From Vicinamibacteria bacterium (GTDB taxonomy: Bacteria > Acidobacteriota > Vicinamibacteria > Vicinamibacterales > JAENWD01), in the NCBI GenBank assembly GCA_963697705.1, contig CAVOPA010000009.1, forward strand, positions 240,821 through 304,820: DNA of 64,000 nt, given 5' to 3'. Below the pieces are notes generated by a model. It saw only the letters and a program-made list of their open reading frames with translations. It had not been told where the DNA came from and did no database searches. The position numbers and the translations under genes are program-made. Below are positions 6,222 to 48,955 of the stretch, one piece after another; position 1 is the first letter of the stretch; every line of letters starts with the position of its first letter.

Positions 6222-6228
6222 TCCCGCA

Positions 6229-7367: not shown

Positions 7368-7373
7368 AGACTC

Positions 7374-9030
<1,657 letters not shown>

Positions 9031-9038
<8 letters not shown>

Positions 9039-10120: not shown

Positions 10121-11161
10121 CTAGGACGTCCCGTACCCCCACCCCTGGAGCTGCTCGAGCGCGATCTCGGTCATCGCCGCAATCCATCGCGGCCGATCGT
10201 TCAGCCCTTTCACCAGCTGCAGCGTCTCGCCGCCGGCAGCCCGGAACTGCTCGAGTCCGACGTGCCCGATTTCGTCGATCGTCTCCAGGCAGTCGGCAAC
10301 GAAGCCTGGACAGATCACCGTCACGTCTCGAATACCGGCTCGCGCCAGTGCGACCAGGGTCTCGTCCGTGTACGGGCGCAGCCACGGCTCGCGGCCGGCG
10401 CGCGATTGATAGGAAAGCTGGTACGTGCCATCCGCCCACCCGGCCCGTGCGGCCAGCAACCTCGCGGTCGCCTCGCAGTGCGATGCGTACGGGTCGCCGC
10501 TATCGACGAACCGCTGCGGAATGCCGTGGAAGGAAATGAGGATCTTGCCGGGCCGCCGGGGCAGCGGCGTCATCGCCTCACGAGCCGATTCGGCGAGCGC
10601 CTCGACGTAAGCCGCGTGGGCGTAATAGGGCGGGACCACACGGAGTGCCGGCACGAACCGGGACAGCGACAGCTGCCGGAACACCTCGTCGTAGGTCGAT
10701 CCCGTCGTTGCGCTTGCGTACTGCGGGTAGAGCGGAAACAGCAGCAGCCGGTCCGCCCCCCAGGCCAGCAGCTCCCGCACGGCCGACCCGATCGAGGGAC
10801 TGCCATAGCGCATGCCCAACGCGACCTTGAACCGTCCCGGCTCCTCGCGATTGAGCGCGGCTTCGAAGGCGCGCGCCTGCGATCGCGAGATGACGAGCAA
10901 CGGCGAGCCCTCGCGCGACCAGATCCGCTGATAGAGCGCAGCCGACCGGTGGGGCCGGCGCGGTAATACGAGCAAGCGCAGGACGAACCACCACAGCACC
11001 CGGTTGCGCTCGACGACGCGAGGGTCGCTCAGAAACTGCCGCAGGTAACGACGAAGCGCCGCAGCGGTCGGCGCATCCGGCGTGCCGAGCTGCGCGAGCA
11101 GCACGCCGAGGCGGTCGTTGTTGTGCGCCAGCAGTGCCTCCACACGGCCTTCCTGCAACAA
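10121..11161 (-). CDS. hemH: Ferrochelatase
   Basis: 346 aa with typical blocks (GVLLAQLGTPDAPT, LRRYLRQFLSDPRVV, LFPLYPQYASATTGS, ISFHGIPQRF). Confidence 0.9.
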   Translation of the reverse strand: MLQEGRVEALLAHNNDRLGVLLAQLGTPDAPTAAALRRYLRQFLSDPRVVERNRVLWWFVLRLLVLPRRPHRSAALYQRIWSREGSPLLVISRSQARAFEAALNREEPGRFKVALGMRYGSPSIGSAVRELLAWGADRLLLFPLYPQYASATTGSTYDEVFRQLSLSRFVPALRVVPPYYAHAAYVEALAESAREAMTPLPRRPGKILISFHGIPQRFVDSGDPYASHCEATARLLAARAGWADGTYQLSYQSRAGREPWLRPYTDETLVALARAGIRDVTVICPGFVADCLETIDEIGHVGLEQFRAAGGETLQLVKGLNDRPRWIAAMTEIALEQLQGWGYGTS

Positions 11162-11532: not shown

Positions 11533-12729
11533 ATGAGGACAGTTACCGTGGTCGGCGGAGGGTTCTCCGGGCTCGCGACGGCGTACTACCTGTCGCAGGC
11601 GGGAATCTCCGTCGAGATCCTCGAGAAGACCGACCGGCTCGGCGGCCTGATTGCAACGCTCGAGACGCCACACGGCCCCGTCGAGACCGCGGCGATGGGG
11701 ATGAAGAACTGTGCGCGCGTCGACGCGGTGTGCCGGGACCTCGGGCTTCCGATGCTGTGCTCCACCCGAGCGTCCGGCCGGGCTCGTTACATCTACCGCC
11801 AGCGACCCAGGCGCTGGCCGCTGAACCCAGGCGAGTACCTGACGCTCGCGGCGCGGTTCGCGACGGCGACGGCGCGGGGCTCGCGGCGCCCTCGGCCGCT
11901 CGAGACGGTGGACGAGTGGGGCGCGCGTGTGCTGGGACGGCGGGCCACCCGGTGGCTGATCGGTCCAACCCTCCAGGGCATGTACGCCGGCGATCCGGCG
12001 CGCCTCAGCGCCTCGCTGGTGTTTGGCGCGCGGGAGCGGGCCGCGCCACCTGCACGGAAGGGCCTGATGGCACCCGCACGCGGGATGCAGCAACTCATCG
12101 ACGCGTTGGAATCCCGCCTGCGGGCGCGCGACGTGAGCATCCGCCTGAATACCCCGGCACGGCTGGATGGCTCGACGCCCGCGGTCATCTGCACATCGGC
12201 GCGCGATGCGGCGGAGTGCCTCCGGGACGTTGCCCCGGCCGCGAGCCAGGCGCTGTCGACCATTGACATGCTCCCCCTCGTCCGCATCACCGCCTTCTAC
12301 CCCGAGGACGACGCGCCGCAGCGGGCCCGCGGAATTCTCTTCCCGCGTGGTGGAGACATCCGCGCGCTCGGCGTGTTGTTCAACACCAACATCTTTCCCG
12401 ATCGCGCGGGGCAGTACTCGGAGAGTTGGATTTACGGCGGCGCCGCGGATCGTGATGTCGTCCACCTCGCCGAAGACGATTTGGCGGCGTTGATGGATCG
12501 TGACCGGCAGTTGCTCTGCGGGCGTTCGGTTGCACCCGCCGCACGAGTGGTGCACCGCTGGCGCGCGGCGCTACCGCATTACGACCTGCAGCTGGAATCG
12601 GTGCGGGCGGGCGGCTTCGACCTGCCAAGGGGCGTCTTTCTGGCGGGGAACTACGTGGGAGGCATCGGTGTGACGATGCTGCTCGAACAGGCCGCGGCCG
12701 TCGCCACCCGGGTACGCGAGATGGCGTAA
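11533..12729 (+). CDS. hemY: HemY-type FAD-dependent protoporphyrinogen/coproporphyrinogen oxidase
   Basis: N-terminal dinucleotide fold VTVVGGGFSGLATAYYL. Amine-oxidase-like body. Divergent from hemH. At 398 aa it is shorter than many family members. Substrate cannot be assigned from sequence. Confidence 0.75.
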   Translation: MRTVTVVGGGFSGLATAYYLSQAGISVEILEKTDRLGGLIATLETPHGPVETAAMGMKNCARVDAVCRDLGLPMLCSTRASGRARYIYRQRPRRWPLNPGEYLTLAARFATATARGSRRPRPLETVDEWGARVLGRRATRWLIGPTLQGMYAGDPARLSASLVFGARERAAPPARKGLMAPARGMQQLIDALESRLRARDVSIRLNTPARLDGSTPAVICTSARDAAECLRDVAPAASQALSTIDMLPLVRITAFYPEDDAPQRARGILFPRGGDIRALGVLFNTNIFPDRAGQYSESWIYGGAADRDVVHLAEDDLAALMDRDRQLLCGRSVAPAARVVHRWRAALPHYDLQLESVRAGGFDLPRGVFLAGNYVGGIGVTMLLEQAAAVATRVREMA

Positions 12730-12814
12730 TCGCGTGAGTGCCGAGACGTGCCGCAGTGCCGTTACGTCTGTGGCTCTCGGGTGTTCTGTCCGCAGCGCGC
12801 GAGGAGGAAGCTCG

Positions 12815-15602: not shown

Positions 15603-16159
15603 TGTCGCTCCTCTTCTCGCGCCTGCCGAAGGGGCCGTACTACGGAATCCTGGCCGAATTCGCGACGCCGGCGGACCTCTTTCACGCGTGCGAGCGAGTG
15701 CGCGACGCGGGCTTCACCCGGTGGGACGCGCACAGCCCGTTCCCTGTCCACGGTCTCGAGGGAGCGATGGGGCTCAGGCGCTCTCCGCTTCCGTGGATCG
15801 TCCTCGCCACGGGGCTGATGGGGGCCACGCTCGGGTTCTGCCTGCAGTGGTGGGTCCACGCCGCCGCCTACCCGCTCGTGATCAGCGGCAAACCGTACTT
15901 CGCCTGGCCCGCGTACATTCCGATCACCTTCGAGGTCGCAGTGCTGTTCGGCGCGCTCGGCGCCGTCTTCGGCATGTTCGGCCTGAACCAGCTGCCCATG
16001 CACTACCATCCGCTCTTCAGGTCCCAGGTCTTCGAGCGGGTGACCGACGACGCCTTCTTCATCTCGATCGAATCGTGGGATCCCCGATTCGATCCGTCGG
16101 CGACGGGGAAGCTGCTGGAGTCGCTGGGCGCACGCAGCGTCGAGCTCCTGGAGGCCTGA
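15599..16159 (+). CDS. ActD paralog (DUF3341-type)
   Basis: [13 protein letters not shown]...[15 protein letters not shown] aligns with ActD. The start (TTG 15599 or ATG 15602) overlaps the upstream stop codon. Confidence 0.8.
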
Positions 16160-17374
16160 ATGATCCCCGAACGCGATCGCGTCGCGCTGCGGCCCGAGCA
16201 GGCCACGATTCCGCCGGGGCACCCGGCGAACCGCCTTCCGATCGTCGGCGTCGTCGCCGCCCTGCTGGGCGCTGTGGTGTGCGTGATTCTGGGGCCGGCC
16301 AATCCGAAGCAGTTCTTCTTCTCGTGGCTCGTGTCGTTCCTGTTCTTTCTCAGCCTGGCCGTCGGCGCGCTCTTCTTTGTGCTGATCCAGTACGCAGCCC
16401 AGGGCGAATGGGGGATCGTGCTGCGGCGGATCGGGGAGACGACCTTCGCGACGATTCCCGTGATGGCGGTCCTCTTCGTGCCGGTGCTCCTCGGCCTGCA
16501 CGATCTCTACCTGTGGAGTGTTCCGGGCGCGGCGGAGCATGATGCGCTGCTTCGCTGGAAGGCGCCTTATCTCAACGTGCCGTTCTTCCTGGTCCGGGCG
16601 GCGCTCTACTTCGGAAGCTGGTCCTTCATCGCGGTCTTCTACTACCGCAGCTCGCGCGGTCAGGACGTGACGGGGGATCTCCGGGTGTCGGCCCGCTTGC
16701 GCCGCCTCGCGGGTCCCGCCCTCATCGTCCTCTCGGTGACCTCGACCTTCGCCTCGTTCGACTGGATCATGTCGCTCACGCCGCACTGGTACTCGACCAT
16801 CTTCGGCGTCTATTTCTTCGCCGGGTCCTTCGTCGGGTTCATCGCGCTGCTCTCGGTCGTCGTGGTGGCGATGCGCGGGGCGGGACTGCTGGACACGGTC
16901 ATCAGCACCGAGCACCTGCACGATGTCGGCAAGCTCCTGTTCGCATTCACCGCGTTCTGGGCCTATATCGGCTTCTCCCAGTTCTTCCTCATGTGGTACG
17001 CCAACCTCCCGGAGGAGACGATTTGGTACAAGGCCCGGATGGAGGGGTCCTGGATGCAGGTCTCGCTGTTCCTGATGGCGGGGCATTTCGTGGCGCCGTT
17101 CTTCTATCTGATGGGGCGCACGGTCAAGCGGAAGGGAGCGACCCTGGCGGCCGGCGGAGCGTGGCTCCTCGCCATGCACTTCCTCGATCTCCACTGGCAG
17201 ATCATGCCGACGCTCCATCCCGACGGGTTCCGTCCGTCGGTGCTGGACGTCGCCGCGCTGATGGCCGTCGGCGGGTGCTTCGTGGCGGCGGCGAGCTGGC
17301 TGATGCGACGGCAGGCACTCGTGCCGCTGCGCGACCCGAGGCTCGCCGAATCTCTCGCTTTCGAGAACGCCTGA
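16160..17374 (+). CDS. ActF paralog (polytopic membrane subunit)
   Basis: HLHDVGKLLFAF..WAYIGFSQFFLMWYANLPEE aligns with ActF. The start is adjacent to the actD-paralog stop. Confidence 0.8.
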   Translation: MIPERDRVALRPEQATIPPGHPANRLPIVGVVAALLGAVVCVILGPANPKQFFFSWLVSFLFFLSLAVGALFFVLIQYAAQGEWGIVLRRIGETTFATIPVMAVLFVPVLLGLHDLYLWSVPGAAEHDALLRWKAPYLNVPFFLVRAALYFGSWSFIAVFYYRSSRGQDVTGDLRVSARLRRLAGPALIVLSVTSTFASFDWIMSLTPHWYSTIFGVYFFAGSFVGFIALLSVVVVAMRGAGLLDTVISTEHLHDVGKLLFAFTAFWAYIGFSQFFLMWYANLPEETIWYKARMEGSWMQVSLFLMAGHFVAPFFYLMGRTVKRKGATLAAGGAWLLAMHFLDLHWQIMPTLHPDGFRPSVLDVAALMAVGGCFVAAASWLMRRQALVPLRDPRLAESLAFENA

Positions 17375-18366: not shown

Positions 18367-20130
18367 ATGAGTGAGCCGGCAGCCGTCGCCGCATCCACGC
18401 CGCACGCCGCGCACGACGTCCATCACGAGGCGCTCGGCTTCTGGCGCACGTACGTCTTCTCCGTCGATCACAAGGTCATCGGCATCCAGTACGGCATCAC
18501 CGGTCTGCTGTTCCTGCTATTCGGCTTTTCGCTGATGATGCTCATGCGCTGGCAGCTCGCCTACCCTGGCGTCGCGCTGCCGCTCATCGGTAACCTCTTC
18601 GGCGAAGCGCGCATGCCGGGAGGCACGATGCTCCCTGAGTTCTACAACGAGCTCGGGGCGATGCACGGCACCATCATGGTCTTTCTCGGCGTGGTGCCCC
18701 TGGCCGTCGGCGGTTTCGGGAATTTCGTGCTCCCGCTCCAGATTGGAGCGCCGGACATGGCCTTCCCGCGGCTCAACATGGCGAGCTACTGGTTCTTCTT
18801 CCTCGGCGGCGTGACGATGCTGGCCAGCTTCCTCGTCCCCGGGGGAGCGGCGCAGTCCGGGTGGACCTCCTACGCGCCCCTCTCGGTCATCGCGGGTACG
18901 GGCCAGACGATGTGGCTCATCGGGATGATTTTCCTGATCACCTCGTCGCTGCTCGGGGCGGTCAACTTCATCACGACCACGATCCAATTGCGCGCCAAGG
19001 GCCTCACGTTCATGCGATTCCCCTTCTTCGTGTGGGCGCAGTTCGTGACCGCGTTCCTCCTGCTCCTGGCCTTCCCGCCGCTCGAGGCCGCGGGCGTCAT
19101 GCAGCTGATGGATCGTGTCGCCGGGACCAGCTTCTTCCTCCCGAGCGGCCTCGTCGTCAGCGGCCAGGTCCTGACGAATGCGGGCGGAGGCAACCCGCTC
19201 CTGTGGCAGCACCTGTTCTGGTTCCTGGCGCACCCGGAAGTCTACGTCCTGATCCTTCCGGCGATGGGGATCGTCGCCGAGATCATCGCGAACAACACGC
19301 GGAAGCCCCTGTGGGGCTACCGTTCCATGGTCTACTCGATCATCTTCCTCGGCTTCATGTCGTTCATCGTGTGGGCGCACCACATGTTCATGACCGGCAT
19401 GGGGACGGCGATGGCGGCGTTCTTCCAGACGACGACGATGATCATCTCGATTCCATCGGTCGTGATCCTCACGGCCCTGATCATCTCGCTCTGGGGCGGA
19501 TCGATACGTTTCAATACGCCGATGCTCTTCGCGGTCGCCTTTCTGCCGATGTTCGGCATCGGCGGGCTCACGGGGCTTCCGCTCGGCTTGAACGTCGCGG
19601 ACATCCCGCTGCACGACACCTACTACGTCATCGGCCACTTCCACTACGTCGTCGCGCCAGGGACGATCTTCGCCCTGTTCGCGGGGATCTACTACTGGTA
19701 TCCGAAGGCAACTGGAAGAAAGATGAACGAGACGCTCGGCAAGATCCATTTCGCCGGCTCGTTCGTCTGCATGAACGTCATCTTCATGCCGATGTTCCTC
19801 ATGGGCCTGGCCGGCGTCTCACGGCGGCTGTACGACGGTGGCGCGAGCTACGCGTTTGCGCAGCCGGTGCTGCACCTGAACGTCGTGTCGTCCTGGGGTG
19901 CGTGGATTATGGCGCTCTTCCAGATCCCCTTCATCTTCAACTTCTTCTGGAGCCTCCGGAAGGGAGAGAAGACCGACGCGAACCCGTGGCAGGCCACGAC
20001 AATAGAGTGGGCGGCGCCATCGCCCCCGCCGCACGGCAACTTCTCCGCGCCACCGGAAGCGTACCGGGGGCCCTACGAGTACAGCGTTCCCGGCGCGGCC
20101 AGGGACTTCGTGCCGCAGTCCGAGGCCTGA
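18367..20130 (+). CDS. coxA: Cytochrome c oxidase subunit I, second copy
   Basis: 587 aa with HCO blocks (WFLAHPEVYVLILPAMG, VWAHHMF, HDTYYVIGHFHY). Confidence 0.95.
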   Translation: MSEPAAVAASTPHAAHDVHHEALGFWRTYVFSVDHKVIGIQYGITGLLFLLFGFSLMMLMRWQLAYPGVALPLIGNLFGEARMPGGTMLPEFYNELGAMHGTIMVFLGVVPLAVGGFGNFVLPLQIGAPDMAFPRLNMASYWFFFLGGVTMLASFLVPGGAAQSGWTSYAPLSVIAGTGQTMWLIGMIFLITSSLLGAVNFITTTIQLRAKGLTFMRFPFFVWAQFVTAFLLLLAFPPLEAAGVMQLMDRVAGTSFFLPSGLVVSGQVLTNAGGGNPLLWQHLFWFLAHPEVYVLILPAMGIVAEIIANNTRKPLWGYRSMVYSIIFLGFMSFIVWAHHMFMTGMGTAMAAFFQTTTMIISIPSVVILTALIISLWGGSIRFNTPMLFAVAFLPMFGIGGLTGLPLGLNVADIPLHDTYYVIGHFHYVVAPGTIFALFAGIYYWYPKATGRKMNETLGKIHFAGSFVCMNVIFMPMFLMGLAGVSRRLYDGGASYAFAQPVLHLNVVSSWGAWIMALFQIPFIFNFFWSLRKGEKTDANPWQATTIEWAAPSPPPHGNFSAPPEAYRGPYEYSVPGAARDFVPQSEA

Positions 20131-20135
20131 TTGAG

Positions 20136-20726
20136 ATGGAAATTCCCTACACCGTAGCGATCCGCCGCGATACCGGCCTCAATAACGGCAAGATCGGGAT
20201 CTGGCTCTTTCTGGCGTCGGAGGTGATGCTGTTCGGCGCCCTGTTCGCGTCCTACATCCTGATCCGGACGGGGGCACCGACCTGGCCGCGGGGAGACACG
20301 ATCCTGAACGTGCCGCTCGCCACGTTCAACACGCTCGTCCTCATTTCGTCGTCGGTCACGATGGTCATGGCCTGGGCGTCGCTGATGCGCCACCGCATCG
20401 GGACCTTCCGGATCTACATGGGGACGACGATCCTGCTCGGGTTCGTGTTCCTCGTGGTGAAGTACTTCGAATACAGCCACAAGTTCCACGACGGGCTCTT
20501 TCCCAGCACCAACAACTTCCTCGCCATCTACTTCACGTTGACCGGCCTGCACATGCTCCACGTGGCCGGCGGGATGGCGGTGAACGCCTATCTGCTGGGT
20601 CCAGGCTCGAAGCTCTGGAAGACGAACCCGGAGTGGTTCACGAATCGGGTCGAGAACTCGGGTCTCTTCTGGCACTTCGTGGATCTGGTCTGGATCTTCC
20701 TGTTTCCGACGCTGTATCTTCTCTAG
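20136..20726 (+). CDS. coxC: Cytochrome c oxidase subunit III, second copy
   Basis: ATG at 20136 lies within track ORF 18861-20726. Sequence IGIWLFLASEVMLFGALF...LFWHFVDLVWIFLFP. Confidence 0.9.
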   Translation: MEIPYTVAIRRDTGLNNGKIGIWLFLASEVMLFGALFASYILIRTGAPTWPRGDTILNVPLATFNTLVLISSSVTMVMAWASLMRHRIGTFRIYMGTTILLGFVFLVVKYFEYSHKFHDGLFPSTNNFLAIYFTLTGLHMLHVAGGMAVNAYLLGPGSKLWKTNPEWFTNRVENSGLFWHFVDLVWIFLFPTLYLL

Positions 20727-20740
20727 CAGGGACGACGATC

Positions 20741-21067
20741 ATGACGAGCGATCACGTGAGCGTGACGAGCGACCACGCAGCTGACATCGACAAGCACGTC
20801 AGGATCTACATCACCGTGTTCGTCGCGCTCATGGCCCTGACACTGATCACGGTGGCGGTGTCTCGCGTTCACCTTCCCGTGCCGATCGCCGTGAGCGTGG
20901 CCCTGCTCGTTGCCACCGTGAAGGGAACGCTGGTGGCGTGCTACTTCATGCACTTGATCTCCGAGAAGAAGCTGATCTACGCGGTTCTCGCGATTACCGC
21001 TGTCTTCTTTGTCGCGCTGCTCGCCCTTCCGGCCATGACCGTCAGCAACGGCTACTGGATTCACTGA
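20741..21067 (+). CDS. Cytochrome c oxidase subunit IV-like small membrane protein, second copy
   Basis: 108 aa with three TM helices. Resembles 9769-10107 (LVACYFMHL versus VVLFFMHV). Confidence 0.7.
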   Translation: MTSDHVSVTSDHAADIDKHVRIYITVFVALMALTLITVAVSRVHLPVPIAVSVALLVATVKGTLVACYFMHLISEKKLIYAVLAITAVFFVALLALPAMTVSNGYWIH

Positions 21068-21267
21068 TGAACCTGCGGTCGGTCCACGCGCTGCTGATCC
21101 TCCTCTCCGCGGCGCTTGCGGTGATCTTCGGTCTCTGGTGCCTGGGCCGATACGGGCGGGAGGACGGTGTGGCGAGCCTGCTCGCGGCTATCGCGGCCTT
21201 CGCGGTGTCATTGGGTCTGGTCGTCTACGACTCATGGTTCCTGCGTAAGACGAGGACGCTGCGATGA
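21067..21267 (+). CDS. Hypothetical two-TM membrane protein (66 aa)
   Basis: The ATG overlaps the upstream TGA (TGATG), and the stop overlaps the next ATG (ATGA). Two hydrophobic helices. No recognisable family. Confidence 0.5.
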   Translation: MNLRSVHALLILLSAALAVIFGLWCLGRYGREDGVASLLAAIAAFAVSLGLVVYDSWFLRKTRTLR

Positions 21268-21629
21268 CCCGCCTCCACTCTTCCCCCTTCGCGCGTCGTG
21301 CTACGCCGGACAGGTCGCGCTTCGGCGCGGCAGGAAGCGCCGAGTCGCCGGCCCTCCGCTGGATTTTGCAGGCTTGCACGACGGCCGCGGCCGTGATCAT
21401 CGGCGGGGGCACGAGCGTCCTTGCCTGCCCCGTGTGCTTCGGGGCGGAGGAGAGCTCGATGATCGACGCGACGAAGCTCGGGGTCATCGTGATGCTGGCC
21501 ATCACGCTCGTGGTCCAGGGCGGGTTCGTGGGCTTCTTTCTCTACCTTCGCAGGCGCGCGAAGCGCATCGCAGACGTCGAGCTCGACACCGAGTGGTCGG
21601 AGCTCCAAGGGGCCTCGAGAACATCATGA
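21264..21629 (+). CDS. Hypothetical two-TM membrane protein with a CPVC motif in the inter-helix loop
   Basis: Arg-rich N-terminus, TM1, ACPVCFG, TM2. ATGA overlaps on both sides indicate translational coupling with coxB. Confidence 0.55.
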   Translation: MTRLHSSPFARRATPDRSRFGAAGSAESPALRWILQACTTAAAVIIGGGTSVLACPVCFGAEESSMIDATKLGVIVMLAITLVVQGGFVGFFLYLRRRAKRIADVELDTEWSELQGASRTS

Positions 21630-22426
21630 CTGAATGGCTCGGACTCCCGCCGCTCGCCTCGGCTCACGGCGGCCAGATCGACAGCTTGATTGGCTGGACG
21701 CACGTGTTCATGCTCATCCTGTTCGTCGGATGGGGAGCATTCTTCGCGTATACCCTGGTTCGCTTCCGCCGCTCGCGGCACCCGGTGGCGGACTACACGG
21801 GAATCAAGTCGCATGCCTCGAGCTATTCCGAGATCGGCGTGGCCATCGTCGAAGCGATTCTCCTGTTCGCGTTCTCGGTTCCGATCTGGGCCGCGAGAGT
21901 CGACCGCATTCCGCCGGAGAACCAGGCGCTGGTCGTTCGGGTCACGGGCGAGCAGTTCGCCTGGAACGTCCACTATGCCGGCCCCGACAGAGTATTTGGC
22001 CGCACCGACGTCAAGCTGATCGACCTGCAGTCGAACCCTCTCGGAGTCGATCGCTCCGATCCGGCTGCCAAGGACGACATCACCACGGTCAATCAGCTCT
22101 ACCTGCCCGTGAACAAGCCCGTGATCGTCAGGCTCAGGAGCAAGGACGTCATCCACAGCTTCGGCGTGCCCGAGTTCCGGGTGAAGCAGGACGCCATTCC
22201 CGGCCTCACGATTCCCATCTGGTTCATTCCCAACGTCACGACCGCCGAGATGCGGACCCGGACGGGGAAGGCGGACTTTCAGTACGAGATCGCCTGCGCG
22301 CAGCTCTGTGGGCTGGGCCATGCCCGCATGCGCGGATTCGTCACCGTCCAGACCGCAGACGAGTTCCAGAAATGGATGGACGCCCAGGAGGAACAGCTGA
22401 AGGGCGAATCCGACATCTTCCAGTAG
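21626..22426 (+). CDS. coxB: Cytochrome c oxidase subunit II without a cytochrome c domain
   Basis: Two N-terminal TM helices and the CuA pattern VIHSF...CAQLCGLGHARM. No CxxCH motif. ATG at 21626 lies within track ORF 21167-22426. Confidence 0.9.
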   Translation: MTEWLGLPPLASAHGGQIDSLIGWTHVFMLILFVGWGAFFAYTLVRFRRSRHPVADYTGIKSHASSYSEIGVAIVEAILLFAFSVPIWAARVDRIPPENQALVVRVTGEQFAWNVHYAGPDRVFGRTDVKLIDLQSNPLGVDRSDPAAKDDITTVNQLYLPVNKPVIVRLRSKDVIHSFGVPEFRVKQDAIPGLTIPIWFIPNVTTAEMRTRTGKADFQYEIACAQLCGLGHARMRGFVTVQTADEFQKWMDAQEEQLKGESDIFQ

Positions 22427-23486: not shown

Positions 23487-26065
23487 ATGCCTGAGATCTT
23501 TGCCGACCTGCGGTATGCATTACGCGGCCTGCGCCGGAGCCCGCTCTTTGCCGTCGTGGCCATCCTGTCGCTATCGCTCGGAATTGGCGCAAACACAGCG
23601 ATCTTCACGCTGATCGACCAGATTCTGCTCCGCAAGCTCCCGGTGAAGAACCCCGACGAGCTCGTCATGCTCTATCAGGAAGGGGCCAACAACGGCAGCA
23701 ATGCGGGCTCGCGGATGCATTCGTATCCGATTTACCAGGACTATCAGAAGCGCGCCGCCCCCCTGGCCGAGGTCGTGTGCCGGCGTCTGGTGCCCGCATC
23801 CGTCAGCATCGACAACCGGACCGAACGGCTCGAGGCCGAGCTCGTCTCCGGCAACTTCTTCACCATGCTGGGGGTCAGGCCCGCCGCCGGGCGCGTGCTC
23901 AACTCGAAGGAAGACGATCAGGTCTATCAAGGCCACCCGGTCGTCGTTCTCGCCTACGACTACTGGGTGAGCCGCTTTGCCCGTGACCCCAGGATCATCG
24001 GCAAGAAGATCCTCGTCAACGACTACCCCATGACGATTGTCGGCGTGTCTCAGGCGGGGTTTGCGGGGATCGATCCGGCACGGAGTCCCCAGATCCGCGT
24101 GCCGATCCTGATGAAGCCGGTCATGCTGCCCGACTGGGACTGGCTGAAGATCGGTGACCGCCGCGCGCGGTGGGTGCAGGTGTTCGCACGGCTCAAGCCG
24201 GGCTACACGGCGGAGTCGGCGAAGGCGCCGCTCCAGACGCTCTTTACGCAGATTCGGCGGCATGAGATGTCGCTGCCGGCGGCGAAAGACTGGTCCAAGT
24301 ACGAGCGCGGCGAATTCATGAAGGGGCGACTGCTCGTCGAGCACGCGGCCATGGGCTACTCCGGCCTGCGCAACGACTTCTCCACGCCCCTGGTCGTGCT
24401 CATGTGCATGGTCGGTCTCGTGCTGCTGATCGCCTGCGCGAACGTCGCCAACCTGCTGATTGCGCGCGGCTTCATGCGCCAGCGGGAGATCGCGGTGCGC
24501 CTGTCGCTCGGTGCGTCGAGGCGGCAGCTGGTGCGGCAGTTGCTCGTCGAAAGCCTCGTGCTGTCGTTCTTCGGCGGCATCGCGGGGGTATTGCTCTCGG
24601 TCGCGCTCACACGAGGTCTGCTGGCGTACATGCCGACTGATGGGACTCCGCTCCTCATCGCGCCATGGCCTGACGCCCGCATCCTCGGCTTCACGCTCGT
24701 CCTCACGCTGACGACGGGAATCGTGTTCGGTCTCGTGCCGGCGCTGCGCTCGAGCCGCCCCGACCCGTGGACGACGCTCAAGGACACGGTGGGCTCACTG
24801 GCAGGAGGCAGCGGTTCGCTGTTCCTGCGCAAGGGCCTGGTCACCGCGCAGGTGGCGCTCAGTTTCCTGCTGCTGTTCGGTGCCGGACTCTTCGTGCGCA
24901 GCCTGCAGAACCTCAAGACCGCCGAAACGGGTGTCGCGCTCGACAACCTGATCACGTTCCAGCTCGCGCCGTCGCTCAGCGGCTACGACGATCGCAAGGC
25001 CACGGACTTCTACAGCCAGCTGCTCGCACGTCTGCGCTCGGCGCCAGGCGTCGATTCCGCCGGCCTTGCCACCGTATCCATCCTGAGCGGCAACGAGTGG
25101 GACAGCAGCATGTCGGTCGAAGGTCATCACCCCGTCGACGGCGAAGACATGCAGGCCTTCATGAACGCGCTCTCGCCCGGATACTTCAAGACGATGCGCA
25201 TTCCGCTGCTCGAAGGGCGGGACTTCACCGATGCCGACGTCCAGAACCACGCGACGTTCTTCGCGACCCTGCTCGCCGACGAGAAGTCGGCCTCCGCTCA
25301 CACCGTTGCGATCGTCAACAGAAAATTCGCCAATCATTTCTTCAAGGGTCGCAGCGCCATCGGACGGCGCATCGGCTTCGGCACCGGACCCGACGCCAAG
25401 CAGAACATCGAGGTCGTGGGCGTTGTCGCGGATTCGCTCTACGAGGGTCCGCGCGAGGGCGTCCGGCGCCAGGTGTTCATCCCCAACTTCGGCAAGAACA
25501 GCGCGACGATCTATGTGCGGACGCACAACGCCTCCTCGTCCGCGTACAGCACGATGCGGAGCGTAGTGCGCCAGCTCGACGCAGCGCTGCCGATCTACGA
25601 AATGAAGACCGTCGAAGCGCAGCTCGACGAGACGCTGCTCACCGACCACCTCATCGCCACGCTCTCGGCCGGGTTCGGCTTCCTCGCCACGCTGCTCGCG
25701 TCGATCGGGCTCTACGGCGTGATGGCATTCGTGGTCGCGCGTCGTCGAAAGGGGCATTCGTGGTCGCGCGTCGTCGAAAGGAGCTCGGCATCCGACTCGC
25801 GCTCGGCGCTCAGCCGGGTCTCCTGATCTGGCTCGTGATGCGGGAAGTGCTGATACTGCTCGCGATCGGGCTCGCGATAGGCCTGCCATCCGCGCTCGTG
25901 CTCGGGCGATTCGTCGAGTCGCAGTTGTACGGCGTCAAGGCGCAGGACCCGACGATGGCCATTGCCACGGTGGTCGTCCTGTCGGTGGTGTCGGCGACGG
26001 CCGGGTTGATCCCGGCGCGAAAGGCCAGCCGGATCGACCCGATTCTGGCCCTTCGATACGAGTAG
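23487..26065 (+). pseudogene. ADOP-family duplicated FtsX/MacB-like permease, disrupted by a 29-bp tandem duplication
   Basis: The N-terminal 779-aa ORF (23487-25826) and the C-terminal FtsX helices in track ORF 24767-26065 join into one 849-aa protein if one repeat copy is removed. Typical LSLGIGANTAIFTL and RIDPILALRYE ends. Confidence 0.85.
25724..25781 (+). repeat. Perfect 29-bp tandem duplication (GGCATTCGTGGTCGCGCGTCGTCGAAAGG x2)
   Basis: Copies at 25724-25752 and 25753-25781 are identical. The insertion length is not a multiple of 3. Confidence 0.95.
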
Positions 26066-44412: not shown

Positions 44413-45293
44413 ATGACCGCATCGCGTCGCGCATCGCTGCTCGTCGTCTTCGCGCATCCCGACGACGAGATCTTCCATGGCGGCATGCTGATGCACCTCA
44501 GTCAGCGCGGCGTTCGAGTCACGCTCGTCTGCGCCACGAACGGGGAGGCGGGCAAAACGCATCCCTCGATCGGAGCGGTCGATGACATTGGCGAACTGCG
44601 CATCGAGGAGCTGACGGGTGTCCTGCAACAGGCTCGGCATCGACGCCGCCGGTGCTCCTCGGCTTTCACGATTCCGCGCGTGGTGAGCGCCAGCGGCACG
44701 ACGACCCTCGCGCGCTGGCGAACGTGGACATGCTGAAGGTGGAAGCCGCAATTCGACGCGTCATCGAGGACGTGACGCCGCACGTCATCCTCACGTTCGA
44801 TCCGCACGGCGGCTACTACCATCCCGACCATCTCGCCGTTCAGCGCGCCACGACGGCAGCCTTCTTTTCGAGTGGCGCGATGGGCGCTCTCGCACCAGGG
44901 CGGTTGTTCTACGCCACGATGCTGTCCGAGGTGTTCCGTGGCCTTGCCGTCAAGAGTCGAGGGCGCGGCATCGTCGACGGCCTGGATCCCGACGTGTTCG
45001 GCACGGCGTCAGACATGATCGCGGTATCGTTCGACGCCGCTCCATTTGTAGAACGAAAGTTCCTGGCACTGGCTGCCCATCGGTCTGCGTTCGGGGTCAC
45101 CGAGGAGATGCTGAGCCGCCCTCCGGCCGGTACACGCGAGATGCTCGATGCGTTCCGTCCGGTATTCGAGCGCGAAGTCTTCGTTCTGGGTGGGACGCGT
45201 ACTGCAACCTCGCGATGGCCCCTGAACGATTTTTTCGACGGCATCGCATCCGCCGAACTCGATCAGGCGAGCTCGAAAATCGCTTCCACATAG
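44413..45293 (+). pseudogene. PIG-L/LmbE family deacetylase with two +1 frameshifts within about 35 nt
   Basis: N-terminal VVFAHPDDEIFHGG. The frame changes near 44615-44620 and again near 44648-44652. The C-terminal part is track ORF 44652-45293 (LLGFHDS...FDPHGGYYHPDH). Confidence 0.75.
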
Positions 45294-45783: not shown

Positions 45784-47226
45784 CTACCGGAAGAGCTTCG
45801 GCGTCGGCATCCGGGCCCGGATTCCCTCCAGCTCCTCGACCGTGACGCGGGCCACACGGTTCCTGCGGCAGGAATCCTCGACGGCCCTGACGACCATGCC
45901 CCGGACGAACGCGGGGATCTTCTTCATCCGCTCGGCCGCCGCATCGTCCCACGCGATGGTGGTCGGCGCTTCGGCGCCGTACTCAATCGTCTGAGGGCCG
46001 ACATCCGCCTGCACAGGACCAGAGCCTGCCTCGCTGAAGCCGCGGAGGGGCGACGTCGCGAGAAGGGGAGAGCCCGCGAACGTCCCAGGCGTGTGGGTGC
46101 AGAGCGGATCTTCGGCCATCACATCGCCGGTCATCCCGTAGGCCCGCGCGCGGCAACCGCCGCAGTGGCCGTTCATCTCGCATGCCCCGCACCGCCCGCC
46201 AAGCGAGGTGCGGCGGCGAATGTCCGCGAAGAGTGCCGAGGAGGTCCAGAGATCCGCGAGCGTGGCGCTCCGCAGAGATCCCGCGAACACCGGGAGATAC
46301 GGACACGGGGTGACGTCACCGTTCGGCCGGATCCCCATGTAGTGCGTCCCCGCCGGGCACCCGCCGGCCCCGCCGGAGTAGGTCCTGATCGGGGACGGAC
46401 CGGTCCACGAGGCGGTTCCCGCCGTTTCGGCGTCCGCCGGAATCGCGTCGATCCCGGCGCCGGCATGCTCCAGCACGGTCCTGATGTAGTGCGGCGCGCA
46501 CTTCGCGTTCACGAGCATCCGGCGGGCGTACTTCTGCTGGATGCGGTAGAGCGAGGCGAGAACCTCGTCGTACTGCGCGGGCGTGATGTCGGACACGAAC
46601 TGCCCGCGGCCCGTCGGGACCAGGAAGTAGAGGTTCCAGACCCTGGCGGCGAGGCGTTCGTGCGCGAAGTCGGCGATCGCGTCGAGCTCGCCGAGGTTGT
46701 GTGAGCCCGCGGTCGTCTGGACGATGAAGGGGAGCCCGGTCGCGTTCAGGATATTTGCTCCGTCCACCGTGTTGCGCCACGCGCCACGCACTTTCCTGAA
46801 GCCGTCGTGGCGATCGGGATCGAGGGCATCGAGGGAAAGCGAGAGTCCTCGTGCTCCGGCGTCAGCCAGTCGCCGCGCCAGGTTCTCCGTGATTCGTACG
46901 CCGTTGGTGCCGACGACGACCCAGAGTCCACGCTCCGCCGCGCGCCGGACGATCTCGAGGATGTCGCGCCGTAAGAGCGGCTCGCCGCCGGTCAGGATCG
47001 TCAGGCACTCAGGCGCGAAAGCGGCGATCTCGTCGATGACCCTGAAGCAGTCTTCGGTGCCGAGCTCGCTCCTGTCCGCGAAGTTCTCCGTGCCGACCAT
47101 GGGGGTGCCGCCGGCGTCGAGATAGCAGTGCTCGCAGGCGAGATTGCAGCGGTAGGTGAGGTTCCACGAGACGACATAGGGCCGGGCGAACGGGCTGGTG
47201 GTCGGAAGCGTCATATCGGTTTCCAT
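45784..47226 (-). CDS. Radical SAM/SPASM enzyme of the AhbD/NirJ-like type with a C-terminal helical extension
   Basis: CNLACEHC (CxxxCxxC). SPASM-type CGACEMNGHCGGCRARAY. The extra C-terminal segment WDDAAAERMKKIPAFVRGMVVRAVE is shared with the neighbouring small protein. Confidence 0.9.
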   Translation of the reverse strand: METDMTLPTTSPFARPYVVSWNLTYRCNLACEHCYLDAGGTPMVGTENFADRSELGTEDCFRVIDEIAAFAPECLTILTGGEPLLRRDILEIVRRAAERGLWVVVGTNGVRITENLARRLADAGARGLSLSLDALDPDRHDGFRKVRGAWRNTVDGANILNATGLPFIVQTTAGSHNLGELDAIADFAHERLAARVWNLYFLVPTGRGQFVSDITPAQYDEVLASLYRIQQKYARRMLVNAKCAPHYIRTVLEHAGAGIDAIPADAETAGTASWTGPSPIRTYSGGAGGCPAGTHYMGIRPNGDVTPCPYLPVFAGSLRSATLADLWTSSALFADIRRRTSLGGRCGACEMNGHCGGCRARAYGMTGDVMAEDPLCTHTPGTFAGSPLLATSPLRGFSEAGSGPVQADVGPQTIEYGAEAPTTIAWDDAAAERMKKIPAFVRGMVVRAVEDSCRRNRVARVTVEELEGIRARMPTPKLFR

Positions 47227-47235
47227 GACGCTGGA

Positions 47236-47748
47236 TCACATGCCGAAGAATTCGCGGGCCGCGTCGAGGATCTTCTCGTCCACTTCGAGGGCCCCTCTTT
47301 CCCGGGCGAATTTCTCGATGCCGGTCCGCGCCATGGGACGCACAAAAGCGGGGATGTTGGCGAGCCGCGCTTCGGCGGCGGACGTCCACCGTATGGGCAT
47401 CGACTCGGCAGGCTGGCCGGGTCGCGTGTCGACGTTACCTTCGACGCCAGCCATCATCGCGGGGAAAGGACATCGGGAGCCGGAGGCAGGAATGCCCGCT
47501 CCGGTATCGCTATCGGTGGAACGGCGCGCGTCTGCGCCGGCCGCCGCCGCGCCGCTCGACGCGCCGGCGTCGGGGCCGATCCGCACGCCCAGCGACTGGA
47601 CGAGCTGAGTCTCGTATGGATTGGTCAGCATCGCCATCTCGTAGCCGCACTCAGGACACGAGTAGACGACCGAGAGTGAGCCGCCCTGGGGCGCGCCGAC
47701 CGTTTGCAGCTTCATCGGGCTGTCGCAGGGGACGCAGAGGAACTTCAT
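47236..47748 (-). CDS. Zinc-ribbon protein with a C-terminal domain resembling the protochlorophyllide-reductase BchB/ChlB C-terminal ('PCP_red') fold
   Basis: N-terminal CVPC...CPEC, a low-complexity linker, then WTSAAEARLANIPAFVRPMARTGIEKFARE. The start overlaps the upstream gene by 4 nt. Confidence 0.7.
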   Translation of the reverse strand: MKFLCVPCDSPMKLQTVGAPQGGSLSVVYSCPECGYEMAMLTNPYETQLVQSLGVRIGPDAGASSGAAAAGADARRSTDSDTGAGIPASGSRCPFPAMMAGVEGNVDTRPGQPAESMPIRWTSAAEARLANIPAFVRPMARTGIEKFARERGALEVDEKILDAAREFFGM

Positions 47749-48779
47749 GGCGAAAGATCCTTGCCCGCCTCCGCTGAAGCGTCGGCGAGGCTCGCCGTAG
47801 TGCCTGCGGCGCGAAGGCGGCCGAGTCGTAGCTCACGTGAGTGATCCGCCGAGGCCGGCATCGTCGATTCGAGGCTGTCCAGCAGTTGCTGCGCAACATG
47901 CTCCAGCGCCCGTCCCACAGGTGTTTCGGGCAGTTCCGCGAGAGGGATCCCCCGATCGCAGTGGCGTGCCAGCTCGGGATCGAATGGGATCGTCCCGAGG
48001 CAAGGGATCTCGAGGCCCGGCGACTCCGCCTTCGCTGAAACTTCGGCGGACCCCCGTAGCGTTGGCGGAGGCTGGTCGAGTGAGACAAAGAGCGGCTTGA
48101 TGGCGTTGCAGTCACGGCAGTAGTAGCCGCTCATGTTCTCGACGTAACCGAGGACGCGATTGGAGCCCTTCGACAGCGCGGCCACCGAACGCGCGACCAC
48201 CCCGCGTGACACTTCGGAAGGGATCGTCACCAGCAGCAACGAGGTCCGCGCCCCGAGGAAGTCGGCGTACTGGACAGTCCGCTCGGCTCCCGGCGGCAGA
48301 TCGAACATCAGCAGATCGAGCGCTCCCCACTCGAACGATCCGAGAATCTCGGAGAGCAGCGCGAACTCCCGCGTGGCGCGCCAGGTATGTGACTCTCCCT
48401 GCGCCGCGCTCTCGAACTCGAGCGCCTCCGACTCCGGGATCAGCGAGCCCATCGAGAACACCGCGATCCCGTTGGTCGTCTTCGGGAGCGAGACCTTGTT
48501 GGTGCCGGGAACGAACACCGCACCCTGGACACCTGCCATCCGAGCCTGCGAGGGGCCGTTGAAGTCCGCGTCGACGATCCCAATCCGAAGCCCCCGGGCG
48601 CGCAGCGCGCCGGCAAGATGGAGCGTCAGCGTGCTCTTGCCGACGCCTCCCTTGCCGGAGCCGACGGCCACGAGATGACGAACGCCGGCGAGCCCGGCGG
48701 TGATGCGGGTGCGCTGCTCGGCGACCTGCTCGAGGACTCTCGACCCTCCGTCGCCGACGATGTCGTGGTAACTCTTCAC
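47745..48779 (-). CDS. Mrp/NBP35/ApbC-family P-loop ATPase (Fe-S cluster carrier type)
   Basis: Deviant Walker A GSGKGGVGKST. CxxC (YYCRDC). Preferred start is the GTG at 48779 (VKSYHDIVGDGGS). The track ORF extends to a GTG at 48869. Confidence 0.85.
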   Translation of the reverse strand: MKSYHDIVGDGGSRVLEQVAEQRTRITAGLAGVRHLVAVGSGKGGVGKSTLTLHLAGALRARGLRIGIVDADFNGPSQARMAGVQGAVFVPGTNKVSLPKTTNGIAVFSMGSLIPESEALEFESAAQGESHTWRATREFALLSEILGSFEWGALDLLMFDLPPGAERTVQYADFLGARTSLLLVTIPSEVSRGVVARSVAALSKGSNRVLGYVENMSGYYCRDCNAIKPLFVSLDQPPPTLRGSAEVSAKAESPGLEIPCLGTIPFDPELARHCDRGIPLAELPETPVGRALEHVAQQLLDSLESTMPASADHSRELRLGRLRAAGTTASLADASAEAGKDLSP

Positions 48780-48955
48780 CTGGCTGACGTTCCGAGGGGG
48801 ATAGCTTACAACGTCGCGCGCCGGCGGAGGGCCGAGGAGTTCTCGAGCCAACCTGCATCGCCCGGGCACACAATCCGGCCCACCTCACCCGGCTGTCGGC
48901 TCTGGCGCGCGGCTGGACGCCTGCGAACTCCTTTGCCGGATCGGTGTGGGCGTCT

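Follow-up and report, generated by a model that had tools for sequence, protein, structure and literature searches.

In the genome of a soil acidobacterium of the Vicinamibacteria, three tightly packed minus-strand open reading frames encode a radical SAM enzyme, a small protein and an Mrp-type ATPase, which raises the question of what reaction they serve. A first-pass annotation of the window (the whole 64,000-nucleotide stretch of DNA that was analysed) had seen in this trio a self-contained system, possibly an oxygen-independent coproheme decarboxylase. The domains, relatives and genomic company of the three proteins suggest that they are the central part of a haem b synthase (coproheme decarboxylase) that needs neither oxygen nor peroxide and serves the coproporphyrin-dependent (CPD) pathway, equipped with a dedicated Fe–S loader and tethered docking or electron-shuttle partners; we give this reading a slightly better than even chance.

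Architecture of the radical SAM enzyme

45784..47226, minus strand: AhbD-lineage radical SAM/SPASM enzyme with C-terminal PCP_red, 480 residues (Pfam, NCBIfam, tree, AlphaFold)
47125..47148, minus strand: CX3CX2C motif of the radical SAM [4Fe-4S] cluster (C27, C31, C34), invariant in alignment A2
46099..46500, minus strand: eight-cysteine SPASM region, predicted to hold two auxiliary clusters (cysteine spacing; alignment A2)
45958..46086, minus strand: disordered tether from SPASM to PCP_red, residues ~381–423 (AlphaFold pLDDT; A2)
45811..45957, minus strand: PCP_red domain of the enzyme, residues ~424–472 (PF08369; AlphaFold)

The open reading frame coordinates bear out the compact arrangement noticed in the first pass, the end of the Mrp gene overlapping the beginning of the small-protein gene by 4 nt (47745–47748) and a 9-nt gap (47227–47235) separating the small-protein gene from the radical SAM gene. 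The 480-residue enzyme is made up of the Pfam domains Radical_SAM, SPASM and PCP_red. Its AlphaFold model (overall pLDDT 76.8) has a SPASM radical SAM fold, the closest solved folds being PqqE, SuiB and SkfB.

Both cysteine motifs reported earlier, CxxxCxxC and CxxCx5CxxC, were found, the former at C27/C31/C34 and the latter at C346–C358 (C346GAC349EMNGHC355GGC358). The SPASM cysteines (C243, C290, C308, C346, C349, C355, C358 and C376), all eight of which are invariant in A2, are spaced X46-X17-X37-X2-X5-X2-X17. The full-SPASM motif published for AhbD is CX20-33CX17CX36-37CX2CX5CX2CX17-35C (PMC10452713), and the spacers X17, X37, X2, X5, X2 and X17 fit it exactly, including the unusual CX2CX5CX2C. 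The sole exception is the first spacer, X46, owing to a disordered insert at about residues 256–280 (pLDDT <50). This insert is specific to the acidobacterial trio-type lineage, occurring among A2 members in the window protein and P0090 only. The tether that follows the SPASM domain, with pLDDT values of 30–44 over residues 393–419, varies in length and sequence in A2 and leads to a helical PCP_red domain (pLDDT 81–87).

The enzyme lies on the AhbD side of the tetrapyrrole group

Judged by its sequence, the enzyme is a member of the lineage of AhbD (haem b synthase, EC 1.3.98.6; NirJ2), which acts in the siroheme-dependent pathway of sulfate reducers and archaea and has also been reported in some Gram-positive CPD organisms. 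The top NCBIfam models are AhbD (TIGR04545, 290 bits) and NirJ2 (TIGR04055, 274 bits), both scores lying below the equivalog cut-off of 500 bits but far ahead of NirJ (154 bits), AhbC (140 bits) and NirJ1 (133 bits), and ahead of the peptide maturases; the radical SAM/SPASM family TIGR04053 gave 263 bits against a required 395. The same ranking was obtained for seven other sequences, four with PCP_red and three controls without it. The other PCP_red-bearing members reached 300–325 bits with the AhbD and NirJ2 models, whereas controls from Desulfovibrio (584 bits) and Bacillota (532 bits) exceeded the cut-off; the cut-offs were likewise missed by an archaeal AhbD recognised from its synteny (376 and 353 bits), a fragment cut to 318 residues and hence with a lowered score. 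The enzyme is 35–40% identical to AhbD, and many of its homologues carry the JGI label ‘AdoMet-dependent heme synthase’.

In a neighbour-joining tree of the catalytic core (329 columns, 54 sequences, without bootstrap support), the PCP_red-bearing enzymes form one clade that adjoins archaeal and Bacillota AhbD and then sulfate-reducer AhbD, these groups being recognised by synteny with ahbA/B/C, with AhbC-like sequences outside. More distant relatives are fused to an AhbA/B-type siroheme decarboxylase. The earlier grouping with AhbC, AhbD and NirJ is upheld by these scores, controls and tree, specifically on the AhbD side, and neither the HMMs nor the tree placed the enzyme robustly in a non-tetrapyrrole subfamily. 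It shares with AhbD the CX3CX2C and eight-cysteine motifs, with AhbD spacing, in a sister clade, and probably also a two-step propionate-to-vinyl decarboxylation.

The small partner and the shared PCP_red domain

47236..47748, minus strand: small partner of 170 residues, with a four-cysteine Zn-ribbon/rubredoxin-like knuckle, a low-complexity linker of ~65 residues and PCP_red (PF08369)
47584..47748, minus strand: N-terminal ribbon MKFLCVPCD...CPECG (C5, C8, C31, C34; motif and cross-phylum conservation)
47464..47472, minus strand: conserved lone Cys-Pro-Phe (C93) in the linker, candidate haem-regulatory-motif-like ligand (CPF counts)
47254..47388, minus strand: PCP_red domain of the small protein, residues 121–165 (PF08369; structure alignment)

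The C-terminal segment had been described as common to the enzyme and the small protein and as reminiscent of the BchB/ChlB PCP_red domain, and both descriptions proved correct. The two copies are 36% identical over 47 residues (pairwise BLASTP, E = 2e-5) and pass PF08369 (gathering cut-off 32.5 bits) with 37.7 bits in the enzyme and 59.4 bits in the small protein. They align to the C-terminal ~55 residues of ChlB/BchB (2ynm_D 475–529) and to two stand-alone NMR structures (Asr4154 2l09, 2kru), representing the same helical domain of ~45–55 residues. As in dark-operative protochlorophyllide reductase (DPOR), PCP_red would here belong to a tetrapyrrole enzyme working with a P-loop Fe–S ATPase; unlike in BchB/ChlB, it is carried by radical SAM, Usp and Zn-ribbon proteins in non-phototrophs, and the ATPase is Mrp-type, not BchL-type. 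The literature found does not establish a role for PCP_red, even in BchB, which counts against the reading proposed here. An architectural parallel is offered by NifB with its NifX domain, likewise a radical SAM enzyme with a small C-terminal domain of which free-standing copies are encoded nearby; NifX/NafY-type domains traffic cofactor between partners in nitrogenase maturation. The parallel extends to architecture only, the domains being unrelated and the cofactor different.

The small protein has 6396 homologues and is conserved across phyla as a two-domain protein of 150–200 residues. Its four-cysteine ribbon, formed by the CVPC and CPEC motifs, is kept from Acidobacteriota to Poribacteria, Bacteroidota and Gemmatimonadota. 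A CPF motif upstream of PCP_red is present in 13 of 19 small proteins, compared with 0 of 60 of the enzymes’ own PCP_red domains, and is absent from the Gemmatimonadota small proteins; its Cys-Pro hints at a haem-type ligand.

This conserved lone cysteine, together with the position of the small-protein gene immediately upstream of the enzyme gene, would also suit a protein or peptide maturase that takes the small protein as its substrate and acts, for example, on the linker cysteine, in the manner of RiPP maturases or anSME. SPASM enzymes typically modify peptides or proteins, PqqE, SuiB and SkfB among the nearest folds included. We regard this as very improbable: the enzyme is nested in the tetrapyrrole AhbD/AhbC/NirJ group, its conserved two-domain partner, with a domain in common with the enzyme, is unlike a precursor peptide, and the small protein is missing from many loci (Nitrospira, Nitrospina, Proteobacteria), as is the CPF motif from the Gemmatimonadota versions. 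A Pfam search gave no PqqD/RRE match.

The Mrp-type ATPase

47745..48779, minus strand: Mrp/NBP35/NUBPL-type P-loop ATPase, 344 residues (PF10609; frame open up to 48869)

The ATPase frame was first called as 47745–48869, encoding 374 residues. The start is most likely the GTG at 48779 (VKSYHDIV...), as an orthologue in a related locus (L001) begins there (MKRYHDIV). Numbered from this probable start, the GKGGVGKS and CxxC motifs noted in the first pass are the deviant Walker A motif (KGGxGK[ST]) at residues 42–49 and the cluster-bridging CRDC at residues 221–224, which with the NUBPL-type P-loop are marks of the Mrp/NBP35/ApbC group. The named equivalogs were not reached (MrpORP, 152 bits, cut-off 450; ApbC, 106 bits, cut-off 348). 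Like MrpORP, Ind1/NUBPL, HCF101 and ApbC, the protein combines GKGGVGKS and CxxC and is encoded beside a specific Fe–S client; unlike them, it has no N-terminal DUF59-type domain, and its translation is coupled to that of a PCP_red protein, the putative adaptor. Its predicted role is that of an Fe–S cluster binder or donor.

Linkage of the accessory genes across genomes

The PCP_red form of the enzyme was found in 49 related loci, which represent about a dozen phyla. Among loci flanked by 5 kb or more in both directions, the Mrp ATPase is encoded near 16 of the 31 PCP_red-type enzymes and at none of the 21 classical AhbD loci (Fisher p = 3e-5). The small protein is present at 13 of these 31 loci and a further partner, UspPCP, at 20; any accessory gene is found at 25, compared with none at the classical loci. 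In all 18 loci where both were seen, the small-protein gene adjoins the Mrp gene, in most of them directly downstream (for example L006, L007, L009, L011, L036 and L043), with a spacing of 0.5–0.7 kb in three Poribacteria loci (L012, L017 and L025). The three genes therefore co-occur well beyond this genome.

The description of the trio as self-contained did not stand. In most lineages this UspPCP protein is a fourth component, of ~650–720 residues with the order Usp-Usp-PCP_red ×3-rubredoxin-like knuckle, which is not encoded in this window; in some lineages it is instead the enzyme that carries the additional PCP_red domains, in natural fusions with two to four copies. The complete operon of L086 comprises a Crp/Fnr-type regulator, Mrp, the small protein, UspPCP and the radical SAM enzyme. 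Compared with AhbD, the enzyme has an additional tethered PCP_red and a set of dedicated partners (the Mrp-type ATPase and the Zn-ribbon–PCP_red and Usp–PCP_red ×3 proteins).

The tight and specific linkage between ATPase and PCP_red proteins would also favour another reading, in which cluster donation is not the function of the ATPase, or not its only one: as an ATP-driven pump of the BchL/NifH kind, positioned by PCP_red, it would pass electrons to the radical SAM cluster. A reductase in the style of nitrogenase or DPOR would then have been recruited by a radical SAM enzyme. The Mrp/NBP35 and BchL/NifH proteins are related, both being P-loop dimers whose cluster lies where the two subunits meet. 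Outside this system PCP_red is known from BchB, which works with BchL, and this ATPase matches no housekeeping equivalog. It belongs, however, to the NUBPL/Mrp family (PF10609, 170 bits) and not to Fer4_NifH, no literature source was found showing the C-terminal domain of BchB in contact with BchL, and the enzymes of Nitrospira, Nitrospina and anammox bacteria have no ATPase within 10 kb. An electron pump seems unlikely.

Haem and respiratory genes around the system

10121..11161, minus strand: ferrochelatase hemH/cpfC, context and probable substrate supplier (TIGR00109, 279.7 bits, cut-off 124.6)
11533..12729, plus strand: HemY-family porphyrinogen oxidase, context (TIGR00562, 119 bits, cut-off 97.85)

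The first-pass annotation had leaned on hemH and hemY. Both are present in the window, about 33–35 kb from the trio with many unrelated genes between, a distance at which they say little. That these are the nearest haem genes, and that the immediate neighbours of the trio (acyltransferase, PadR and PIG-L) are unrelated, counts against the proposed reading. The informative context is that of the related loci. In L009 the order is cytochrome c, HemY, UspPCP, GNAT, Mrp, small protein, radical SAM enzyme and CtaB (haem o synthase), and the enzyme gene is directly followed by hemY in six proteobacterial loci and in L085. In L001 the trio adjoins cox genes and has ChdC and HemY encoded within 10 kb, and COX1-CtaA-CtaB-COX3-COX4 adjoins the system in L002, L034 and L057. 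COX1 lies within 10 kb of 11 of 31 PCP_red-type loci and 0 of 21 classical ones. Siroheme decarboxylase AhbA/B, by contrast, is encoded at 0 of 49 PCP_red-type loci and 7 of 35 classical loci. Unlike AhbD, then, the PCP_red-type enzymes never adjoin ahbA/B/C, and they adjoin hemY, ctaB and cox in oxygen-respiring diderm phyla. The proposal of an oxygen-independent coproheme decarboxylase is the best-supported function, through the L009 operon and the radical SAM–HemY pairs, with the chemistry itself inferred.

Adjacency to HemY fits equally well a reaction like that of CgdH/HemN, in which metal-free coproporphyrinogen III would be converted to protoporphyrinogen IX and the product oxidised by HemY, feeding the protoporphyrin branch. 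Alpha- and Gammaproteobacteria, in which the two genes are direct neighbours, as a rule use the protoporphyrin pathway. The characterised close relatives, in opposition to this, all take an iron-bound substrate, the acidobacterial relatives carry ChdC, a signature of the coproporphyrin branch, and the Cys-Pro of the partner faintly suggests a haem-type ligand. In chemical terms AhbD and CgdH carry out the same reaction, but the electron path proposed for AhbD passes through the substrate iron (PMC10114771). On balance we hold the metal-free substrate to be improbable.

The repeated proximity of cox, ctaA, ctaB and bd-like oxidase genes could instead indicate that another tetrapyrrole is modified for the terminal oxidases, for instance in an oxygen-independent haem o/a step or in some other modification of haem. 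A Vicinamibacterales genome with two tandem enzyme paralogues (L024), which may have different substrates, would accord with this. Such a role is doubtful, since the clusters in question already include CtaA and CtaB, the enzyme also occurs, alone, in anammox bacteria and Nitrospina, and its sequence is closest to AhbD.

A coproheme decarboxylase would share its net reaction, pathway and genomes with the peroxide-dependent ChdC (HemQ), from which it differs in fold and mechanism, ChdC requiring H2O2 and using neither an Fe–S cluster nor SAM. No chdC was found in this window; in relatives at 79–82% identity (L001 and L007) it lies about 8–9 kb from the trio. The enzyme there would accordingly be an alternative to ChdC, not its replacement, and aerobic haem synthesis would not strictly depend on it, a point against the main reading. 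In its favour, AhbD is recognised in reviews as what CPD organisms use in place of ChdC under anaerobic conditions.

Proposed mechanism

From the gene structure, domains, motifs, lineage, conserved linkage and genomic company described above we infer a substrate, a reaction and roles for the ATPase, the small protein and PCP_red. As a coproheme decarboxylase, the enzyme would cleave SAM at its CX3CX2C cluster, and the 5'-deoxyadenosyl radical would take a hydrogen from the propionate of ring A, then of ring B, of Fe-coproporphyrin III. Each propionate would become a vinyl group by oxidative decarboxylation, the leftover electron leaving through the two auxiliary SPASM clusters. The Mrp/NBP35-type ATPase would build [4Fe-4S] clusters at its CxxC dimer interface and load or repair the three clusters of the enzyme, which may be relevant as the organism also respires oxygen.

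PCP_red, which in the enzyme is held on a disordered tether of ~40 residues, would serve as a docking handle drawing partners to the enzyme. Through its own copy, the small protein might recruit the ATPase; alternatively, with its four-cysteine knuckle and conserved Cys-Pro, it could act as an electron shuttle or in haem or coproheme hand-off. The physiological electron acceptor of AhbD is acknowledged to be unknown (PMC10114771; PMC10452713), leaving room for a dedicated partner. A bolder and distinctly speculative extension takes PCP_red as a portable docking handle common to DPOR and this system. The Mrp ATPase and the rubredoxin-like PCP_red proteins would then form an ATP-gated machine for electron delivery and cluster repair, the long-sought redox partner set of AhbD with nitrogenase-like logic, enabling an oxygen-labile radical SAM haem synthase to work in oxygen-respiring bacteria.

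Implications

According to haem-synthesis reviews up to 2026, the oxygen-independent AhbD is confined to archaea, sulfate reducers and some Gram-positives, and no published description of the accessory module was found. The present analysis indicates that a distinct and very abundant enzyme of the AhbD lineage exists in Acidobacteriota, Nitrospira, Nitrospina and anammox bacteria, as well as in Poribacteria, Methylomirabilota, Gemmatimonadota and some Proteobacteria. Trait mapping cannot safely take PF08369 as a marker of phototrophy, and this orphan domain gains a testable role outside chlorophyll synthesis. The genetically linked genes provide concrete candidates for the electron acceptor and the cluster supply of AhbD. 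If the assignment is true, it would complete an aerobic/anaerobic pair, ChdC and a radical SAM enzyme, with which diderm bacteria finish the coproporphyrin pathway.

Gene trio and shared domain

The three genes are arranged on the minus strand as the first-pass annotation had described, with a 4-nt overlap (stop/start) and a 9-nt gap, and appear in the ORF listing as follows:

45784–47226, minus strand, radical SAM enzyme (480 aa)
47236–47748, minus strand, small Zn-ribbon–PCP_red protein (170 aa)
47745–48869, minus strand, ORF of the Mrp-type ATPase

GC3 values of 0.79–0.86 across the trio, in a genome of 65% GC, indicate that all three genes are coding; the likely start codon of the ATPase gene is the GTG at 48779, in agreement with its orthologue. 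Pfam assigns Radical_SAM, SPASM and PCP_red domains to the enzyme, PCP_red and nothing else to the small protein, and a NUBPL/Mrp P-loop domain to the ATPase. The C-terminus shared by the enzyme and the small protein was recovered at 36% identity over 47 residues (E = 2e-5), and its previously proposed resemblance to BchB holds, with both copies above the Pfam gathering score; every motif quoted earlier for the enzyme and the ATPase was found in the sequence. The PCP_red domain sits on a disordered tether of ~40 residues in the AlphaFold model of the enzyme, and on a low-complexity linker of ~65 residues in the small protein. The ATPase, whose gene is translationally coupled to that of the small protein, carries the cluster-bridging CxxC motif. 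No Rfam family reached its gathering score anywhere in positions 1–64000, and a promoter/terminator scan around the trio returned neither a sigma-70-like promoter nor a convincing terminator.

The disordered linker of the small protein contains a lone Cys-Pro-Phe (window 47464–47472) that is kept in 13 of 19 small proteins. Across loci L001–L043 from other genomes it occurs in Acidobacteriota, Poribacteria, Bacteroidota and Rhodothermales, and is missing from the small proteins of Gemmatimonadota and Anaerolineales. The motif could serve as a haem-type ligand, a role that would suit hand-off of a substrate or product.

Relationship of the enzyme to AhbD

HMM classification, which the first-pass annotation had proposed as a check, ranked AhbD (290 bits) and NirJ2 (274) first among NCBIfam models, followed by TIGR04053 (263), all below cut-off and all far exceeding the scores for NirJ, AhbC, NirJ1 and every peptide maturase. 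As controls, a Desulfovibrio AhbD (584 bits) and a Bacillota NirJ2-type protein (532 bits) lie above cut-off, an archaeal AhbD, named by its ahbA/B/C neighbours, scores only 376 and 353 bits (on a fragment cut to 318 aa), and further PCP_red-bearing enzymes reach 300–325 bits. So calibrated, the sub-cut-off score weakens a claim of AhbD equivalence and leaves AhbD chemistry possible.

The radical SAM cysteines of the enzyme are C27x3C31x2C34, and those of its SPASM domain are C243-X46-C290-X17-C308-X37-C346-X2-C349-X5-C355-X2-C358-X17-C376. This pattern equals the AhbD full-SPASM motif described by Fix et al. (PMC10452713) except in the first spacer, which holds a lineage-specific insert that is disordered in the AlphaFold model. 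The model itself shows a SPASM radical SAM fold (pLDDT 76.8); the PDB holds no AhbD or NirJ structure for comparison, and sequence and fold searches against it returned generic SPASM enzymes only (PqqE, SuiB, SkfB). With PCP_red removed, the catalytic cores give a neighbour-joining tree in which every PCP_red-bearing enzyme falls within one clade, neighboured by archaeal and Bacillota AhbD-type enzymes and then by AhbD of sulfate reducers, with AhbC-like proteins outside. Fusions to AhbA/B-like siroheme decarboxylase were seen in more distant relatives.

An AhbD-type reaction is on balance favoured, with modest confidence. This probable function is no surprise, since automated annotation names many homologues 'AdoMet-dependent heme synthase'. 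Assignment as NirJ (haem d1) was rejected for the lack of nir genes and the low NirJ score, a BchB-related chlorophyll function because the hosts are not phototrophs and no other bch genes lie nearby, and a RiPP maturase reading was likewise rejected. That the enzyme might instead mature the small protein is unlikely, as judged by phylogeny and by how patchily that protein is distributed.

Distribution and accessory proteins

Searches returned more than 7000 enzyme homologues at E ≤ 1e-10 and 6396 small-protein homologues at E ≤ 0.001. The best 120 of the more than 7000 enzyme matches are 78–87% identical, and all have the Radical_SAM–SPASM–PCP_red architecture; among acidobacterial copies, 78–87% identity equals the conservation of respiratory proteins in the same loci. 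The window derives from an acidobacterium; it encodes ADOP permeases and is closest to Vicinamibacteria MAGs. Another contig, titled 'uncultured Bifidobacteriaceae' (L007, CAYNUO010000021.1), carries an acidobacterial-type trio (79% identity) with cox genes and chdC, and is probably mis-binned or mislabelled.

A one-genome-per-species scan yielded 80 loci, to which six more were added, and these were analysed by targeted searches, using phmmer and an HMM made for PCP_red. Grouping the neighbouring ORFs by unsupervised clustering was set aside: in high-GC DNA the result was too noisy, with clusters fused by shadow ORFs and by the common PCP_red domain. The PCP_red-type enzyme is present in 49 loci and the classical form, lacking PCP_red, in the other 35 (archaea, sulfate reducers). 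The PCP_red-type loci span Acidobacteriota, Poribacteria, Brocadia, Scalindua, other Planctomycetota, Nitrospina, Nitrospira, Methylomirabilota, Gemmatimonadota, Rhodothermales, Bacteroidota, Anaerolineales, and Zeta-, Alpha- and Gammaproteobacteria; in some lineages, 2–4 copies of PCP_red are fused onto the enzyme.

Accessory genes were counted in the 31 PCP_red-type and 21 classical loci whose flanks reach 5 kb or more on both sides. The trio genes co-occur beyond the window genome: the Mrp-type ATPase lies near the enzyme in 16/31 PCP_red-type against 0/21 classical loci (Fisher p = 3e-5), and the small protein in 13/31 against 0/21. The description of the trio as self-contained did not hold, as it is part of a larger system that includes a fourth protein, UspPCP (~650–720 aa; two Usp and three PCP_red domains plus a rubredoxin-like knuckle), found in 20/31 and 0/21 loci, respectively. 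At least one accessory protein accompanies 25/31 PCP_red-type and 0/21 classical enzymes, whereas AhbA/B show the opposite trend (0/49 and 7/35). The full four-gene operon lies behind a Crp/Fnr-type regulator gene in L086 (193–5407); no UspPCP gene was found within the 64-kb window, and NCBIfam has no model for either the small protein or UspPCP. A separate Cys-Pro motif in UspPCP was rejected, its matches being the CPxC of the rubredoxin-like knuckle, except for two CPF linker motifs in the proteobacterial variants L042 and L046. In the Vicinamibacterales locus L024 (9986–15922), tandem enzyme paralogues with cores 41% identical occur in the order rSAM-B, UspPCP, Mrp, small protein, rSAM-A, the last being the orthologue of the window enzyme. 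One paralogue sits with UspPCP, the other with Mrp and the small protein, and the two may differ in substrate or divide the labour.

Haem and oxidase genes around the system

The genes found around PCP_red-type enzymes point to the last steps of haem synthesis. L009 (61% identity) shows this most clearly and reads cytochrome c, HemY, UspPCP, GNAT, Mrp, small protein, rSAM, CtaB, with HemY above the TIGR00562 and CtaB above the TIGR01473 cut-off. The order UspPCP–rSAM–HemY recurs in six proteobacterial loci and in L085, where cytochrome c, UspPCP, an enzyme with three PCP_red domains and a HemY-like gene occupy 2738–9284. This adjacency to HemY is also compatible with the same decarboxylation acting on coproporphyrinogen, in the manner of CgdH, which could be the case.

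In L001 (82% identity), COX2–COX4–COX3–COX1 and an ACIII module adjoin the trio, followed by HemY and the peroxide-dependent coproheme decarboxylase ChdC, which bears the YPFTK motif that defines active ChdC. COX1–CtaA–CtaB–COX3–COX4 adjoin the system in L002, L034 and L057. The enzyme could perform some other tetrapyrrole modification for terminal oxidases, but CtaA/CtaB are already in those clusters and the enzyme also occurs in anammox bacteria. Directly beside the enzyme in L012, L015–L017, L019–L021, L025, L027–L032 and L002/L003 (Poribacteria, Nitrospira and one other lineage; for example, L032 11249–11788) is a membrane protein with four helices that belongs to the CopD/HemJ (UPF0093) clan, 150–180 aa long with a conserved H..A..W.GG motif, possibly a partner that binds haem or resembles a porphyrinogen oxidase. 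None adjoins the window trio.

The haem-copper oxidase clusters, ACIII-like modules, hemH and hemY of the window lie 24–35 kb from the trio. Other features of the window are:

600–4657 and 14136–17374, paralogous ACIII-like modules
6291–9765 and 18367–22426, haem-copper oxidase clusters
12734–14023, FAD-dependent monooxygenase, in the syntenic place of chdC
23487–25826, ADOP permease, above the TIGR03434 cut-off

Both modules and both oxidase clusters, whose subunit I copies are ~37% identical, fall within one 22-kb stretch, and the second set shares synteny with the L001 cluster adjoining the trio. Relatives have hemY–chdC–ACIII (L001 18465–21455), whereas the window has hemY and the monooxygenase (11533–14023), then ACIII; relaxed tblastn (E ≤ 10) detected no ChdC in the 64 kb. 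The window also holds two more duplicated MacB/FtsX-type permeases. A PIG-L/LmbE-family deacetylase is split over overlapping plus-strand ORFs (44413–44736 and 44652–45293), with Pfam PIG-L residues 1–66 in one and 84–128 in the other. The break is a frameshift, reflecting a pseudogene or a sequencing error.

Proposed mechanism

By family precedent, SAM would be cleaved at the CX3CX2C cluster, the 5'-deoxyadenosyl radical would abstract a propionate hydrogen, and the propionate would be decarboxylated to a vinyl group, twice, with the surplus electron leaving via the auxiliary clusters to an acceptor. The anatomy of the partners suggests that PCP_red would be a mobile docking module common to all accessory proteins, and the most economical role for the Mrp-type ATPase would be that of a dedicated factor loading or repairing the three oxygen-labile clusters of the enzyme. 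The ATPase could alternatively be an ATP-driven reductase, a reading made attractive by the BchL/BchB parallel, but it is NUBPL-type and several lineages have no ATPase nearby. Next to a cluster-loading ATPase, the small protein may be its adaptor, or an electron shuttle using the 4-Cys knuckle. This architecture of enzyme and accessory proteins parallels that of NifB–NifX with free NifX carriers. These partner roles, read from sequence, are held with lower confidence than the AhbD-type reaction.

As ChdC is also present in relatives, analogy suggests that ChdC and the enzyme could be paired for aerobic and anaerobic conditions, respectively, as HemF and HemN are. Use of the system at low oxygen is hinted at by the Usp domains and by the Crp/Fnr gene of L086.

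Novelty and implications

Literature searches found no paper on the module (PCP_red/PF08369 with radical SAM; AhbD in Acidobacteria, Nitrospira or anammox bacteria) or on PCP_red outside DPOR. In reviews published up to 2026, Gram-positives are the only coproporphyrin-dependent organisms for which AhbD is mentioned, and no partners are named. PF08369 serves as a marker Pfam in a genome pre-screen for chlorophototrophy (PMC12815261); through the present system it occurs in many non-phototrophs, so false positives are possible at that step. What is new is a conserved PCP_red-based accessory module, its breadth over oxygen-respiring and nitrogen-cycling phyla, and its tie to oxidase and haem a/o genes.
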